64,000 bases of DNA, from sequence record MK327937.1. One strand, 5' to 3'. Both the position numbers and the translations under genes were made by a program. Position 1 is the stretch's first letter. Each line of letters opens with the position of its first letter. Of this stretch, positions 15,045 to 23,549 are shown in pieces. Source of the DNA: Escherichia phage vB_EcoM_G10400. Below the pieces are notes generated by a model, which saw only the letters and a list, made by a program, of their open reading frames with translations, ran no database searches and was not told the origin of the DNA.

Positions 15045-15074
15045 ACTATAACACAACACGAGGGACTTGTAAAC
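15045..15074 (-). promoter_or_regulatory. Candidate early promoter (GTTTAC -35, 18-nt spacer, TATAGT -10)
   Basis: Minus-strand GTTTAC at 15069-15074 and TATAGT at 15045-15050; part of a ~50-bp cassette repeated at 30281-30334. Confidence 0.5.
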
Positions 15075-17131
15075 TACATTTTGAACTTTTTAGACATTCC
15101 GTTGATGTTAACCAAAGAAGCCAAGATTTGAGAAACTTCATTTTCCTCTTCTTTTGATTCTTCTACAAGGAATTGATTAAATCCAGCCATTGGACGAACT
15201 TCACCAGTTTCCATTAGATGGTCTCCATCATATACTGATTCTTCTAATTGTTCAGAAGGAGGAACGATTGTACCTTCGATTAGATACTTGTTATAAGCAG
15301 TTTCTTTCATAAAGTACGTACTTACTTTATTAATCTTCAGTAAAATTCCACGTGGTAGAATAACTTCAGCTTCTGATGGAAATCCTGATAAATGACCTGG
15401 AACGATAACTTTGATTCGCTCAGCTCCTTTAATTATCATACCCACGCTAGTTTCTGCATCTTCATTAGCATATGTAGAATGACTACCCATATGCATCAAA
15501 TCTTCTGCATCAACGGAACCTTCTCCTTCACCAGAAAATACTGCGCCGGAATCATCTAGAGCCATATAGTTTTTACCATGCTCACCGAAGATATTTGGTT
15601 TAAGCGATGTGGATACGAAGTTCTTGAAATAGAACATTTTATTTTCAATGTTATGACGCAAAGTTTTAAAGGTAACTTCTTGCCCACGGTAAAGTGTAGT
15701 TCCTGGAGGAAGAACTGATCCTTTGGCAAAGGCAGAATCTAACGTCTCGATGTGCTTAATAGCTCGTTCCATGTATTCTTCACGGGTAGAATCTGGTTTA
15801 CCCAAAAGGAACGAGTTCATTTCAACATATGAATCTGCACAATAATCTTCAATTACATCAGATTCAGCCTGAGTCAGTCCTTTTGGAGCTACTTCGGTGC
15901 TTGCGTATTCATATGCCTGGGCAGCAGATTCATTAATCAATTTATAAATGCCATTCATGACAAATTGAATAATAGCTGTCTTTTCATCTGGTGTGGTTTT
16001 AGAACCTTTAACTAAATCATTAATAATTTTCTTAATAACATCAAAGCTATTAGAAATATTAATGTCAGCAAGATCGCTTAAAATTTTATCAGTTTTATAA
16101 TCAAAGAATTCTTTATTCTTTAAATATTCTTGAGAACCTTGATATGTTATATCGCTCTGCAACTTGATAGATGGATCACGTAAACGTGCATGGGCCAATG
16201 CAATATGATTTCGGAAGCTTTCTAGTTCATAATCGTTAGATTTAAAACGAGAAGCACTTCTCATACCACCGATAGCTCCTTTGCTGAAGTTTGAACCAAT
16301 CTGGATAACGCCAGAGTTCATCGGACCTTCTGCTTTATATACCGGAACTTTAGATTCAAACTCTTGATATTTCTTGGCAGCAAAGCTATCACCCTGAAGT
16401 GAAGCATCAACAGTAGAATATTGAGCTTGTGCTGCTAATCGACGACTTATTTTAGTTTTCTGAATAACAGCTTGGTCCGTGCGCTTATCATTTTCTAAAG
16501 CAATAGAAGCAGCAACAGCGACAGCTTTAGGAACAGCATTTCCTGTTTTAACGTCTACATAAACATCACCGACCTTTGATTCAACTTTTGTGAATAACTC
16601 AGTTGAAATAGGAGGTACACCTGGAATGTCTTCTAAATTGGCATTTTTACGGTAAACCATAATATATGCATATTTCTTATCATAGTCCCAGATTTCCTTT
16701 AAAAGAACATATCGACCTGCTCCTTTAGTACGTACTAAACGGTCAGCAATAACTTGCATTTGACGAGCTGCGCCATTTGTTTTACTTTTTAGTACGCGGA
16801 ATAGGCATGCGTCGATTTTATACTGTTTCATTGTTTGAAGAGCAGTATCAAAAACGGCATTAATGACACCAATTGGATTTCCACCCAAGTTTTTAAGCTT
16901 AACTAATGATAGTTTCTCATTAACACCTATCATTACGATATGCATCATTTTATCGCCTGGCTTAACGTTTTTATTCGTATCACCACCAGAGGTGTATGTA
17001 CAAAATCTAAATCCAGGAAGCACGCTTTCTTCGCCGGCTTGAATAGCAAAAATTTGTGGTATTTTATGCTTAGGATTTAAGTTAACAACCGGCGCCGAAG
17101 CGCCGTCAAATAATTCTGTAATAAGTTCCAT
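15074..17131 (-). CDS. Alt-like ADP-ribosyltransferase paralog
   Basis: 685 aa; N-terminus MELITELFD and blocks shared with the adjacent alt; ART signature residues present (TLYRGQ, FVSTSL, EAEVILPRG). Confidence 0.75.
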   Translation of the reverse strand: MELITELFDGASAPVVNLNPKHKIPQIFAIQAGEESVLPGFRFCTYTSGGDTNKNVKPGDKMMHIVMIGVNEKLSLVKLKNLGGNPIGVINAVFDTALQTMKQYKIDACLFRVLKSKTNGAARQMQVIADRLVRTKGAGRYVLLKEIWDYDKKYAYIMVYRKNANLEDIPGVPPISTELFTKVESKVGDVYVDVKTGNAVPKAVAVAASIALENDKRTDQAVIQKTKISRRLAAQAQYSTVDASLQGDSFAAKKYQEFESKVPVYKAEGPMNSGVIQIGSNFSKGAIGGMRSASRFKSNDYELESFRNHIALAHARLRDPSIKLQSDITYQGSQEYLKNKEFFDYKTDKILSDLADINISNSFDVIKKIINDLVKGSKTTPDEKTAIIQFVMNGIYKLINESAAQAYEYASTEVAPKGLTQAESDVIEDYCADSYVEMNSFLLGKPDSTREEYMERAIKHIETLDSAFAKGSVLPPGTTLYRGQEVTFKTLRHNIENKMFYFKNFVSTSLKPNIFGEHGKNYMALDDSGAVFSGEGEGSVDAEDLMHMGSHSTYANEDAETSVGMIIKGAERIKVIVPGHLSGFPSEAEVILPRGILLKINKVSTYFMKETAYNKYLIEGTIVPPSEQLEESVYDGDHLMETGEVRPMAGFNQFLVEESKEEENEVSQILASLVNINGMSKKFKM

Positions 17132-17134
17132 GAT

Positions 17135-19189
17135 TTATCCTTGAACGAACTTGTAAGGCATGTTTGCAATATCTATACAAGACGCAATAATTCCAAGAGA
17201 TGATTCTACTTTCTGTTTAACATTTGATGAAACAAATGATGCAAAGTCAACTCTGTCTTCTACTTCAATATCACCTGTCATTGTAACTACTTCGCCGGTT
17301 TCCATTAGACGGTCACCGTCATAAATTACCGATTCGGTGAGTTCTTCTGTGGTCATAACTTCAGCTTGAATAAGCTTGTTGTTAGTTTTAACTGTTCCAT
17401 CATTGTAAGATGCATCGGTTATTTTATTAACTTTGACCATTAATCCACGTGGCAAAATGACTTCCATTTCATTTGAAGGTGCTAAACTTCCACCTGGTAA
17501 AACAACATTGACTTTATCAGCCCCAGTAATAACCCATCCAATTCCAACTAAATTATCGCTAGAATTTACTAGTCCTTCATCAGTTTTATCAATAGAAACA
17601 CTTAAACGCTTTTCGTCTGGTAAAACACCCACAGATGAATCAGTCATCCAGGTACCAAAAATATTTGGATATAATGATGTTGACACAAAGTTTCTAAAAT
17701 AAAAAACTCGATTTTTTACCATTGCTTCATATATTGAAGGTAACATTCGTTGTGAACGATACAAAGTAATACCTTTTGGTAATCGTTCACCATTTTTAAA
17801 GGCTGAATCTAAATTATCAATAGCTTTTTCTATGTCAGATGCTGTCAAAATACTTGTACGCTCATCTGGATTATATAATCCCAAAAGAGCATTATTTATA
17901 TCTACATATCCTGAACCTACGTATTCACGAATTCCGCGTTTTTGCGCCGGTGTGTATTTAGATGAATCTTTATTTTCGACTATAGGATGTAATGACCATC
18001 CAGCGGTAAGAGCATATCCACGTAATTCTCTTCGAATAATCTTTGTTTTTATTGCATTCCAAGAATTTTGTACTAACTCATTTGCAGCATCTTGGTTTAA
18101 ATGCGAATGTTTGTTAATATTTCTTTCAAACCAAGCACCTTTATATTTTTCTAAGGTATCATCGACGATAGAAGCAATAGTTTCTAAAGTTTTTATTGAA
18201 GTAATAGATTCTTTTTTTAATTTTTCTAAAGCTTTATTTTTTATTTCTGCATTAATAATGGATTCTTTATCTTCAGGAATTATAGAAGCTTCTCTGAATG
18301 CCATCCCAGCTGTAACACTGCTAAGAGCATTCTCTAGTGCAAATCCTGAAGTAGAAATTACCGTTAATTCATTAGAATCAGAAATTAAAGGCGCGTCCGC
18401 TGGTTTATTTAATTCTGCCGCTGAAGCCTCAAATTTTTGAAACATCGGTGTTTCAAATCTAGAAGATTCCAATGACTGACTTTGTGCAATTGCTCTACGG
18501 GAAATTTTAACTTTAACGATTACAGCTTGGTCAGAACGTTTATCATTTTCTTGTGCAATAGATGCTGCAATTGCCTCATTTTTAGTTACTTGAGCTCCAG
18601 TATCTTTATTGATATAAACATCACCGACCTTCGATTCAACTTTAGTAAAGAGCTCGGTACTAATTTCTGGAACTCCTGGAATGTCTTCTAGTGATACATT
18701 TTTGCGATGTATAAGAATATATGCATACTTTTTATCATAATCCCAGAGTTCCTTAAGAAGGACGTATCTGCCACCTGAACGACTACGGATAAGTCTATCA
18801 GCAATAACTTGAATTTGTCGAGCTTGACCAGCGGTTTTAGACTTAAGAATACGAAGCATACAGGCATCAATTTTATACTGACGCATTGTTTGCATCGCAA
18901 CAGTAAAAACTGAATTGATATAATTAATTGGGCTTGGACCAAGACCTTTTAATTTAGCAATTGAACCTTTAGCAGTTAATGTAAAAGGAACAATATGCAT
19001 CATTTTATCGCCCATCTTTAAATCGCGATTAGTATCACCTCCAGATGTATAGGTACATAAACGAAAGCCTGGTTGTTCAATTGCATCATCAACATGAACT
19101 GAAAAAATTTGCGGTATTTTCTTCTTTGGATTTAAGTTTGTAATCGGAAGAGTAGTATCTTCGTCAAATAATTCTGTAATAAGTTCCAT
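17135..19189 (-). CDS. alt: ADP-ribosyltransferase Alt (packaged head protein)
   Basis: About 684 aa from second Met; sequence matches my recall of T4 Alt (MELITELFDEDTTLPITNL...); ART motifs TLYRSQ, FVSTSL, EMEVILPRG. Confidence 0.8.
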   Translation of the reverse strand: MELITELFDEDTTLPITNLNPKKKIPQIFSVHVDDAIEQPGFRLCTYTSGGDTNRDLKMGDKMMHIVPFTLTAKGSIAKLKGLGPSPINYINSVFTVAMQTMRQYKIDACMLRILKSKTAGQARQIQVIADRLIRSRSGGRYVLLKELWDYDKKYAYILIHRKNVSLEDIPGVPEISTELFTKVESKVGDVYINKDTGAQVTKNEAIAASIAQENDKRSDQAVIVKVKISRRAIAQSQSLESSRFETPMFQKFEASAAELNKPADAPLISDSNELTVISTSGFALENALSSVTAGMAFREASIIPEDKESIINAEIKNKALEKLKKESITSIKTLETIASIVDDTLEKYKGAWFERNINKHSHLNQDAANELVQNSWNAIKTKIIRRELRGYALTAGWSLHPIVENKDSSKYTPAQKRGIREYVGSGYVDINNALLGLYNPDERTSILTASDIEKAIDNLDSAFKNGERLPKGITLYRSQRMLPSIYEAMVKNRVFYFRNFVSTSLYPNIFGTWMTDSSVGVLPDEKRLSVSIDKTDEGLVNSSDNLVGIGWVITGADKVNVVLPGGSLAPSNEMEVILPRGLMVKVNKITDASYNDGTVKTNNKLIQAEVMTTEELTESVIYDGDRLMETGEVVTMTGDIEVEDRVDFASFVSSNVKQKVESSLGIIASCIDIANMPYKFVQG

Positions 19190-19241
19190 CATAGCCTCTC
19201 TAGTGTTTATTCTATTTATAAAATTAAAGGCCCGAAGGCCT

Positions 19242-19430
19242 TTAATAATCTAGTGGTAAGAGAGTACGGTATATTTCAAACTTTGGACCTTTTTCATAGG
19301 CATCAAATGTTTCTGTGAATTTATTATAAGCATATGCATCTACAAATTCGAGAATGACTTGTGATACAGAAGTAGAAACATCTCCACCTTCTTTTTGAGC
19401 AATGACAATTGTTTCTAAGTAAGCTTTCAT
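19242..19430 (-). CDS. Hypothetical small protein between ligase and alt
   Basis: 62-aa ORF; overlaps ligase stop. Confidence 0.5.
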   Translation of the reverse strand: MKAYLETIVIAQKEGGDVSTSVSQVILEFVDAYAYNKFTETFDAYEKGPKFEIYRTLLPLDY

Positions 19431-20890: not shown

Positions 20891-21156
20891 TGTTCATCCT
20901 TTAGAGTTTGGTTTACAGCTCTATTATAAATCAATTCATCATTAAGCTCAGTCAAAGACCTGTGGTACGTTGTTCTAACTTTATTTCCTTGCATCCAGTG
21001 CTTGACGTAAATGAAACCTTGCTCTACACATTTTTTAAAAATTCGTTCGTCTTTTTGAGCTCGGAATTCTGGATTGCATCTAAAAAATTGATTTACGTGA
21101 CCGTAATCACGTGTAGTATTACCTTCATTTTCATAAATAGTGTGAACAACAAACAT
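20887..21156 (-). CDS. Hypothetical protein (30.1-like)
   Basis: 89-aa ORF in ligase-distal early cluster. Confidence 0.5.
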   Translation of the reverse strand: MFVVHTIYENEGNTTRDYGHVNQFFRCNPEFRAQKDERIFKKCVEQGFIYVKHWMQGNKVRTTYHRSLTELNDELIYNRAVNQTLKDEQ

Positions 21157-21995
21157 TAGAATGCTCCTTGGAAAATATTATTAGCACCAGTAGGTCTATT
21201 ATACAAATACTCTATGCCACCGGGTTTAATATAGTTCCATGTCTGAAACGGATGCGTCTGATATGGATGATATAGATGATTATAAGGATTAAATCCAGGA
21301 GTTCTCCAGGTAGTGTTCCAAGGAAAAGAATCGTTTTTAATCATCTTTTCAATTACATCTTTTATAGCTTTTTCACTATCAAAACTTTCTTTATTTTCCT
21401 TCGGTGAAAAAAGCTTATTTTCTACATCATTCCATGTATAAACTCGCTGAGCAGTTTTTGGAATATTGTCACGCTCTCCTCGAGCCATCCAATAAACAGG
21501 AACATTTAATATTTCACTCGCATGATCGCAATGGTGAGCGAGATCGTCAATATAACAAATCACGTTATATTTCTCTTTTGCCTTTTTAAACAACTCTTCT
21601 TTTGAAGAATCATGACCACACATCAGTACTTCTGAGAAGGCACCAGGAAAAAGAGCGTTCAAATTAAATTGACGATTCAGCAGAGCGTCAATAGAATCAC
21701 CCAATGCTGTAACAGCTACAAAATTATAATCTTCTTTTAATTTGTTAATTACACACAGAGCATCTTTATATGGAGACAAGTAACGAATAAAATCTGAACG
21801 ATTGTATTTTTCAATTAGCTTGACGCCAAGTTCTTCATCACAATTAAAAAGTTTACCTGGAGAAATAAATTTCTCATCTTGGATCATTTTTAAAATATGT
21901 TCTAATGGAAGATTATATTTCTGAGCAAAATAAGGAAGACCTGATTGCCAGCTTAAACATACTCCATCAATATCAGTTAAAATAGTAGGCTTCAT
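21156..21995 (-). CDS. HAD-family phosphatase-like protein (30.2-like)
   Basis: 279 aa; N-terminal LTDIDGV motif typical of HAD hydrolases. Confidence 0.55.
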   Translation of the reverse strand: MKPTILTDIDGVCLSWQSGLPYFAQKYNLPLEHILKMIQDEKFISPGKLFNCDEELGVKLIEKYNRSDFIRYLSPYKDALCVINKLKEDYNFVAVTALGDSIDALLNRQFNLNALFPGAFSEVLMCGHDSSKEELFKKAKEKYNVICYIDDLAHHCDHASEILNVPVYWMARGERDNIPKTAQRVYTWNDVENKLFSPKENKESFDSEKAIKDVIEKMIKNDSFPWNTTWRTPGFNPYNHLYHPYQTHPFQTWNYIKPGGIEYLYNRPTGANNIFQGAF

Positions 21996-22456
21996 AGAGA
22001 GTCTCTTAATAGGTTTAACACATCAATAAATTCAGCTTCGGTTAGTATTGTATCATCTTTTGTTAGACCACTAGCCATGCTGTGCTTCAAAACTTTTCCT
22101 TTCGAGGCTTGTAATGCATCACGAAAGCCCTTGTTTTGAATCGCTGCTTCAAAATATGCATTTGTGTATAATTCTTTCCACGCCGGGGAGTATCTTGAAA
22201 ACGGAACTCCAATCCAGAAGAGGGTCCCACGGTCCTGAGCTCTAGCATAAGACCTTCCAGCTTGTTGGGCGGCAAGCCCGGATAACCCAAATATACGACG
22301 TTGTTGTTCAACATTTTTCACCTTACACCCTTGGAGGAATCCTTCAAGACCTCCAAATTGAATACCATCCATAACGAAAGGCCATTGGGCGAAATTACTT
22401 AATGCGCATGATGGCCATCTAAAATTACTTCTAATCTCTAACTCAGACATTTTCAA
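21992..22456 (-). CDS. NADAR/YbiA-like domain protein (30.3-like)
   Basis: LSNFAQWPF motif resembles the YbiA/NADAR signature; true start probably at MSELE (22450). Confidence 0.5.
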   Translation of the reverse strand: MKMSELEIRSNFRWPSCALSNFAQWPFVMDGIQFGGLEGFLQGCKVKNVEQQRRIFGLSGLAAQQAGRSYARAQDRGTLFWIGVPFSRYSPAWKELYTNAYFEAAIQNKGFRDALQASKGKVLKHSMASGLTKDDTILTEAEFIDVLNLLRDSL

Positions 22457-22649
22457 TGCTTATAATTTCAACATCAGCCCAATGACCATAGCAAGGAAGA
22501 CGAAATTCAACTGGCCAGTTAGGGTCCTTTTCTAATATAATAGACTTAACTTGTGGTTCTTCGTGTTCATCAGTATACGGATTTTTATCTGTTACTTTAT
22601 ATGTGACCTTAATGTACTGAATTCCAAAAATCTTATTAATTATATTCAT
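22443..22649 (-). CDS. Hypothetical small protein
   Basis: 68-aa ORF, same-strand tight packing. Confidence 0.45.
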   Translation of the reverse strand: MNIINKIFGIQYIKVTYKVTDKNPYTDEHEEPQVKSIILEKDPNWPVEFRLPCYGHWADVEIISIENV

Positions 22650-22843
22650 ACTAATTCCTTTAATCCGTAGATAGGAGATAATTCATCACCCATACGAAGG
22701 TCTTCATTTCCATCTACCCAGGAAACAATATAAGCCTCTTTTATTTGAATACCACTCCATTTAAATGGAGGTAGAACCTTAGAAATTAATCCAGGTATAC
22801 CAACTCCCTTTAATTCAACGGTTTGACCTAAAAAGAATTTCAT
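22646..22843 (-). CDS. Hypothetical small protein
   Basis: 65-aa ORF. Confidence 0.45.
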   Translation of the reverse strand: MKFFLGQTVELKGVGIPGLISKVLPPFKWSGIQIKEAYIVSWVDGNEDLRMGDELSPIYGLKELV

Positions 22844-23130
22844 TAAAACCTCATCTGAAAACCATGCGATTTAACGTTACCACCGCCAATATCAGAAATA
22901 TTAATTTCACGCGCAATTGAAGGGTCAATGTCAATTTCACGATTGAGTTTAGTGATAGCTAAAGTATCGCGCCCATTTACAGTACGGAACTCTAAAGGAC
23001 AAACCACATCAACGTAGTTTTTAATCGATTCGCTAGTAGGTTGCAAATGTGCAGGAAGGTCTTTAGGCGACTTTGAGAAAACTACTTCGCAGAAGTTTTT
23101 ACGGGTATCAAAATAAGTAGTCATAAACAT
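22843..23130 (-). CDS. Hypothetical protein
   Basis: 95-aa ORF. Confidence 0.5.
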   Translation of the reverse strand: MFMTTYFDTRKNFCEVVFSKSPKDLPAHLQPTSESIKNYVDVVCPLEFRTVNGRDTLAITKLNREIDIDPSIAREINISDIGGGNVKSHGFQMRF

Positions 23131-23171
23131 AACATTTTCCTCAGTAAGGGGCCAAAGCCCCTCATTTTATT

Positions 23172-23549
23172 TTAAATATCAAATTCGTTAAGAACTACAT
23201 CAAAGATTGCTTCAAGATGCTCAGGTTTAGCTCTGTTACTCAGAATATGACGAATCCAAGTTTTAACCAAAAGCTTGCGATTAGCACCATTCCAGCAAGG
23301 ATGAGTCCCTAAATCACGTTGACGAAAATCATCATCCAGAGCGATTTTGAAGTTTGAACCTTCCATTGTGATTGAAACCGTGATGCCATTTTCAAATCGC
23401 ATATAAACGTAATTAGGAGTCATATACTGTTCAATTTCGCATACTGATCCATTTTGATGTTTCCAAAGGCAAATAGTATCAATAGAACCTGCAATACAAT
23501 TAGAAACATATTTACGTTCAAAATTGGTGTAGTTCATTTTATTCTCCAA
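23172..23549 (-). CDS. Hypothetical protein
   Basis: 125-aa ORF. Confidence 0.5.
   Translation of the reverse strand: MENKMNYTNFERKYVSNCIAGSIDTICLWKHQNGSVCEIEQYMTPNYVYMRFENGITVSITMEGSNFKIALDDDFRQRDLGTHPCWNGANRKLLVKTWIRHILSNRAKPEHLEAIFDVVLNEFDI

Follow-up and report, generated by a model that had tools for sequence, protein, structure and literature searches.

The product of gene 30.3 of phage T4 (gp30.3) hydrolyses guanosine-ADP-ribose on DNA, but not thymidine-ADP-ribose (PMC11125620). In vitro hydrolysis of guanosine-ADP-ribose by the T4 protein was also reported in two other studies (PMC11825919, PMC12945103), and the enzyme is absent from the list of proteins that remove cytidine-ADP-ribose (PMC12945103). 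Guanosine-ADP-ribose on RNA is cleaved as well, although less efficiently than by DarG1, the antitoxin of the DarTG1 system (PMC11833690). Johannesman et al. (Nat Commun 2025; PMC11825919) mapped resistance against DarTG1 in T2 and T4 to the 3' portion of the gene, which was renamed adfN, for anti-DarT factor NADAR. Purified AdfN strips ADP-ribose from DarT1-modified DNA, T4 without adfN becomes DarTG1-sensitive, and rescue by AdfN is weakened by the substitutions E36A and K43A and by C-terminal truncation (PMC11825919). Phage RB69, in which a frameshift deletes the last 15 residues of AdfN, is sensitive to DarTG1 (PMC11825919). In uninfected cells the T4 protein fails to neutralise DarT1, and phages outside the T-even group are only partly rescued by it (PMC11825919, PMC11125620), which means that an additional T-even factor is required.

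In the mechanism considered here, AdfN is a minimal single-domain N-glycohydrolase of the NADAR fold, made from the 30.9-30 gene cluster. In a host with DarTG1, infection frees the DarT1 toxin, which then ADP-ribosylates guanines in the phage DNA and blocks replication. AdfN would cut the bond between ribose and guanine and release ADP-ribose, restoring DNA that can be replicated. Glu36 would serve as the ribose contact and Lys43 as the phosphate contact, in addition to the subfamily-specific His123.

[quoted passage not shown] The gene for E. coli YbiA (PDB 2b3w, PF08719) is a housekeeping gene of the LexA-controlled dinG operon, and the protein provides no protection against DarT1 in vivo (PMC11125620). 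AdfN(Bas32) and AdfN(Bas60), from T5-like and Vequintavirinae phages, are orphan phage NADARs that reverse the ADP-ribosylation of guanosine by DarT1, as AdfN(T4) does. They fall into different clades of NADARs and, unlike the T4 type, need no extra phage factor. In the last strand, where the YbiA family has a Glu and the DarT-linked family an Asp, the phage NADARs of the gp30.3 type carry a His instead (PMC11543638, PMC11125620). The gp30.3 class had already been set apart in a bioinformatic study of the NADAR superfamily, at least in the form in which that study is cited by papers of the Ahel laboratory (PMC11543638, PMC11125620). NADAR membership, guanosine-ADP-ribose hydrolysis and the anti-DarTG1 role of gp30.3 are therefore all published, as far as the T4 protein and its class are concerned.

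The window analyzed here is a stretch of 64,000 nucleotides from Escherichia phage vB_EcoM_G10400 (MK327937.1), and all coordinates refer to it. Positions 21000-23200 (2.2 kb) match Escherichia phage vB_EcoM_G4507 (NC_054919) at 100% identity. Because the top database match across 25 kb, Shigella phage SHFML-11, reaches only 97.4%, and because a coordinate shift of 6 bases against NC_054919 arises between 21000 and about 19192, towards the alt genes, the window reads as a mosaic related to G4507 rather than as G4507 itself. By sequence, the phage is a T4-like Tequatrovirus.

An open reading frame of 154 codons extends over 21992..22456 on the minus strand, but the TTG at 22456 is only a mechanical start of this frame. 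The ATG at 22450 gives a protein of 152 residues. We chose it and dropped the TTG because the RefSeq annotation of vB_EcoM_G4507 and the T4 record concur in using the ATG, and because the published numbering of E36 and K43 fits the 152-residue form. The adfN coding sequence (gene 30.3; 21992..22450, minus strand) thus comprises 152 codons and a stop, and its predicted product is a phage-type NADAR ADP-ribosylglycohydrolase. Against Pfam, the protein matched PF08010 (Phage_30_3) with an E-value of 4.5e-70 and 234 bits (cut-off 36). Its alignment to T4 gp30.3 is gap-free over the full length, with identity at 150 of 152 positions; the two differences, I80 for L and M125 for I, are both conservative. 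The gene and T4 gene 30.3, now adfN, are orthologues. The C-terminal helix (21995..22036, minus strand; helix 140-153 of the model in 154-residue numbering), which is required for full activity and is lost in the defective RB69 allele, is complete, since all 152 residues are present and the alignment runs to the end of the T4 protein without gaps. Inside adfN, in another frame, there is also an open reading frame of 75 codons (22087..22314, minus strand) that is identical at 74 of 75 positions to T4 30.3', an internal translation product according to the T4 record. Conservation of this frame carries no information, given that adfN, which it overlaps, is 99% conserved in its own frame.

The gene is part of the packed cluster 30.4-30.3-30.2-30.1-30, and the cluster that begins with 30.9 ends with gene 30, which encodes DNA ligase. 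The 3' end of the upstream neighbour, gene 30.4 (22443..22649, minus strand; phrog_2042), overlaps the start of 30.3 by 8 bases. The downstream neighbour, gene 30.2 (21156..21995, minus strand; phrog_420), codes for a protein with HAD/NT5C-like phosphatase motifs, and its ATG overlaps the stop codon of 30.3 in the sequence ATGA. The order 30.4-30.3-30.2 is common to the window, G4507 and T4. A scan for sigma-70 promoter and terminator consensus sequences was uninformative, with 42 promoter-like sites compared to 40 expected.

Near its N-terminus, gp30.3 contains the motif SNFAQWP (22379..22399, minus strand; residues 18-24), which aligns with SNFAAWP in E. coli YbiA and represents the N-terminal NADAR signature. 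In an alignment of 43 gp30.3 family members, N19 never varies and L17 and S18 hardly vary. Pairwise BLASTP of gp30.3 against YbiA extended the match to 19 identities in 57 positions, with an E-value of 9e-6 that applies to this single comparison. On account of this extension, the motif is more than a chance heptamer. Searches with the single protein were negative: hmmscan gave no direct match to PF08719 (NADAR) at E-values up to 10, and neither NCBIfam nor the PDB sequences returned a NADAR match. The case for homology therefore rests on profile and fold comparison.

When 43 diverse gp30.3 relatives were compared with 19 YbiA relatives by hhalign, the two families aligned with 97.7% probability and an E-value of 2.3e-12 over 143 columns, corresponding to 143 of the 152 residues. 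PF08719 was reached by 7 of the 43 relatives at E-values up to 0.01 (best 1.1e-4), and by 3 of 9 in a smaller set. When a profile built from nine sequences was run against the PDB sequences, E. coli YbiA (2b3w) ranked first (E 0.058), aligned across the SNFA.WP...DG block. YbiA was the top relative among solved structures by structure as well as by sequence, and the model shows a helical core between two small beta sheets, the arrangement of the NADAR fold. Weak matches to phrog_1017 and DUF6939 were also seen.

These results bear on an earlier note made from the sequence alone, which had called the open reading frame 30.3-like, had compared SNFAQWP with the YbiA/NADAR signature and had proposed a NADAR/YbiA-like fold. 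The label agrees with the PF08010 match and with the near-identity to T4 gp30.3, and the motif comparison with the YbiA alignment. The profile check against PF08719 that the note had suggested failed for the single protein, whereas every more sensitive comparison agreed with the note. With the hhalign result, with the relatives that do reach PF08719 and with the conserved E36 and K43, gp30.3 belongs to the NADAR superfamily and the fold had been recognized correctly. True remote homology could thus be recovered from a seven-residue motif by sequence reading alone.

The E..[FY]Q..K block with the catalytic Glu and Lys is present in gp30.3. Glu36 (codon 22343..22345, minus strand) is invariant in the 43 family members and aligns with E48 of YbiA. 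Lys43 (codon 22322..22324, minus strand), the phosphate-binding catalytic residue, is nearly invariant and aligns with K55 of YbiA. Replacement of either residue by alanine impairs T4 AdfN (PMC11825919), and the role of the Lys43-type residue in NADARs is also supported by another study (PMC11543638). His123 (codon 22082..22084, minus strand), the last-strand marker of the phage subfamily, is invariant in the 43 members and falls into a predicted strand at 122-125 (154-residue numbering). In the hhalign register, H123 is opposite H126 of the "EH" pair of YbiA and K122 is opposite E125 (22082..22087), whereas the papers describe an exchange of Glu for His, so that the register of the last strand is ambiguous.

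Compared with AdfN(T4) (PMC11825919), the gene in the window has the same length, the same neighbours, E36, K43 and H123, and an intact C-terminal helix. Orthology, fold, residue conservation, completeness of the helix and gene layout are all results of the present analysis. The phages differ in that the window contains a second full-length Alt paralogue, whereas T4 keeps only remnants; its record lists the fragments alt.-1 and alt.-2 of the second alt copy.

Differences from the other NADAR types are larger. The NADAR domains of DarG1 (G. lovleyi, PDB 8bat; E. coli C7) have an N-terminal extension and an Asp in the last strand, while gp30.3 is a bare core domain with a His. gp30.3 is also an orphan that is not paired with a darT gene and cannot substitute for DarG1 in uninfected cells. 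In the annotation of NC_054919 no DarT was found within 12 kb of gp30.3, the neighbours being 30.4 and 30.2. Without the N-terminal extension and without an adjacent darT1, an assignment to the DarG1 type was rejected. YbiA is only 20% identical to gp30.3, and its glycine-rich C-terminal segment YWG.GG.G.G.N is replaced in gp30.3 by a short (D/E)TILTE.EF segment. The YbiA invariants E125, W133, D135-G137, G139, G141 and N143 have no counterpart in the gp30.3 consensus, and the YbiA-type assignment was rejected as well.

The gp30.3 family is broad. By tblastn, 1510 phage records contain gp30.3. Among the hosts of these phages are Klebsiella, Aeromonas, Acinetobacter and Vibrio, and the records extend beyond Straboviridae to Ralstonia phage RSP15 and Brevundimonas phage Gurke. 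An exhaustive profile search was needed to see this breadth, since a word-indexed homologue search gave just 22 close relatives; the profile search returned 1455 cluster representatives at E-values up to 0.001, and in many of these the domain appears to be repeated in tandem or joined to others. Metagenomic relatives often have 290-560 residues (P0023-P0026, P0031, P0037 and others), and some contain two or three stretches that match the profile, for example two in P0023 (294 residues) and three in P0024 (480 residues). These long relatives may represent tandem or fused NADAR domains. PHROG 652 matches gp30.3 only over positions 126-272 of its 296.

Taken with the published work on T4, these data make it highly probable that the allele in the window encodes a working AdfN, which would remove the ADP-ribose attached by DarT1 to guanines of the phage DNA and let replication proceed. 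Enzymatic activity, guanosine specificity and the anti-DarTG1 phenotype are carried over from experiments on the 99%-identical T4 protein, and we infer that the allele with the I80 and M125 substitutions would behave in the same way. With an intact AdfN, the Tequatrovirus described here should resist DarTG1-type defence, which would be useful for the prediction of host range and for the choice of therapeutic phages.

The earlier note had also placed gp30.3 in the same early region as two Alt ADP-ribosyltransferases, and had offered two explanations, either a writer and eraser pair for ADP-ribosylation or protection against host ADP-ribosylating defences. Both Alt-type genes are indeed present in tandem, as context outside the AdfN mechanism. 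The T4 Alt orthologue (17135..19189, minus strand) matches PF03496 with an E-value of 9.8e-36 and shares 99% identity with T4 Alt; the second paralogue (15074..17131, minus strand) matches PF03496 with an E-value of 4.5e-20 and is 41% identical to Alt. Both keep the R / S-T-S / E-x-E motifs. The placement in one region is right with respect to position. It does not hold for the transcription unit, since a terminator and a late promoter lie directly upstream of alt: a GC-rich hairpin with the sequence aaaggccttcgggccttt and a run of T (19226..19243, minus strand), followed by the T4 late promoter consensus TATAAATA (19213..19220, minus strand) some 20 bases ahead of the alt start codon. The G4507 record (NC_054919) likewise has a terminator annotated at this site. 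The consensus TATAAATA is not found in the window more often than by chance (13 occurrences, 8.8 expected), and it is informative only through its location, directly between the hairpin and the start codon of alt. Together, the two elements set the alt unit apart from the gene 30 early cluster.

As an eraser, gp30.3 would remove the ADP-ribose that the phage Alt places on arginines of host proteins, such as the RNA polymerase alpha subunit, and would make the Alt modification reversible. The two intact Alt-type genes are located 2.8-7.4 kb downstream of gp30.3 on the same strand, as such a pairing might lead one to expect. General chemistry can also be invoked in its favour, in that arginine-ADP-ribose and guanine-N2-ADP-ribose both contain an N-glycosidic bond to a guanidine-like nitrogen. 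However, alt belongs to a late unit of its own bounded by a terminator, and Alt is a capsid protein that is injected with the DNA according to the T4 record. In Acinetobacter phage Acj61, alt is on the strand opposite to 30.3, in a group with the baseplate genes 54 and 48. The annotations of Vibrio phage QD01, Aeromonas phage AS-gz, Klebsiella phage Roth22, Ralstonia phage RSP15 and Brevundimonas phage Gurke show no Alt within the 5-6 kb examined on either side of the gp30.3 homologue. The 1510 phage records with gp30.3 compare with 1222 for Alt, so that at least 288 contain gp30.3 and no Alt match, a linkage estimate that is based on record counts. A literature search for assays of NADARs or gp30.3 on Alt-type arginine-ADP-ribose retrieved no report, and the phenotype of the adfN deletion is fully explained by DarTG1 (PMC11825919). 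We therefore regard a writer and eraser pair as highly improbable, and the idea as unsupported rather than disproved. The proximity of NADAR genes to ART genes in T4-like phages had been remarked on earlier (PMC9503650). Because the alt unit is separate and its linkage to gp30.3 is not conserved in other phages, this proximity looks like inherited gene order.

Two further rivals concern small substrates. gp30.3 could act mainly on soluble signals or by-products derived from ADP-ribose, such as immune second messengers or products of RNA repair, and not on DNA adducts. Such a role of phage NADARs has been put forward from comparative analysis (PMC9503650). It would fit the resemblance of the product of the neighbouring gene 30.2 to nucleotide phosphatases, and ADP-ribosyltransferases that generate guanine-N2-ADP-ribose are listed as modifying guanine nucleosides and mononucleotides as well (table in PMC12945103). 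Against this, there is direct evidence that the T4 protein removes ADP-ribose from DNA, and its phenotype is specific for DarTG1 (PMC11825919); the literature that we examined shows no small-molecule substrate for the phage NADAR subfamily, and the proposal seems very unlikely. A housekeeping N-glycosidase of the YbiA type, acting on intermediates of the riboflavin pathway, would be suggested by the rank of YbiA among solved structures, and has next to no probability in our estimate. The second explanation of the earlier note, protection against a host ADP-ribosylating defence, agrees with the published anti-DarTG1 role of T4 AdfN and was correct. Counteraction of DarTG1 by AdfN is thus the preferred reading.

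The T-even factor that AdfN needs for its full activity might be encoded next door, in which case AdfN and gp30.2 would form a two-enzyme module. Although annotated as hypothetical and without a Pfam match, gp30.2 has the motifs of a HAD phosphatase, with DxD at residues 8-10, T96 and DD at 150-151, and the residues D8, D10, T96 and D150-D151 are invariant among four aligned gp30.2-type sequences. In addition to gp30.2, phrog_420 includes gp30.2 of Acj61, a gene of Roth22 that follows the NADAR gene at a distance of about 560 bases, and a gene of QD01 immediately after the NADAR gene, the product of which passes the Pfam threshold for the NT5C 5'(3')-deoxyribonucleotidase family. A module of this kind would be new, if true, but we consider it very unlikely. 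As a weaker variant of this reading, AdfN might additionally shield phage nucleic acid against the Alt-type transferases encoded by the phage, which share the R-S-E clade with the pierisin and ScARP toxins that modify guanine. The order of a NADAR gene followed by 30.2, either adjoining or close, was found in Tequatrovirus, Acj61, QD01 and Roth22 and not in AS-gz, RSP15 and Gurke, and the adjacency may reflect nothing beyond synteny that is conserved in Straboviridae.
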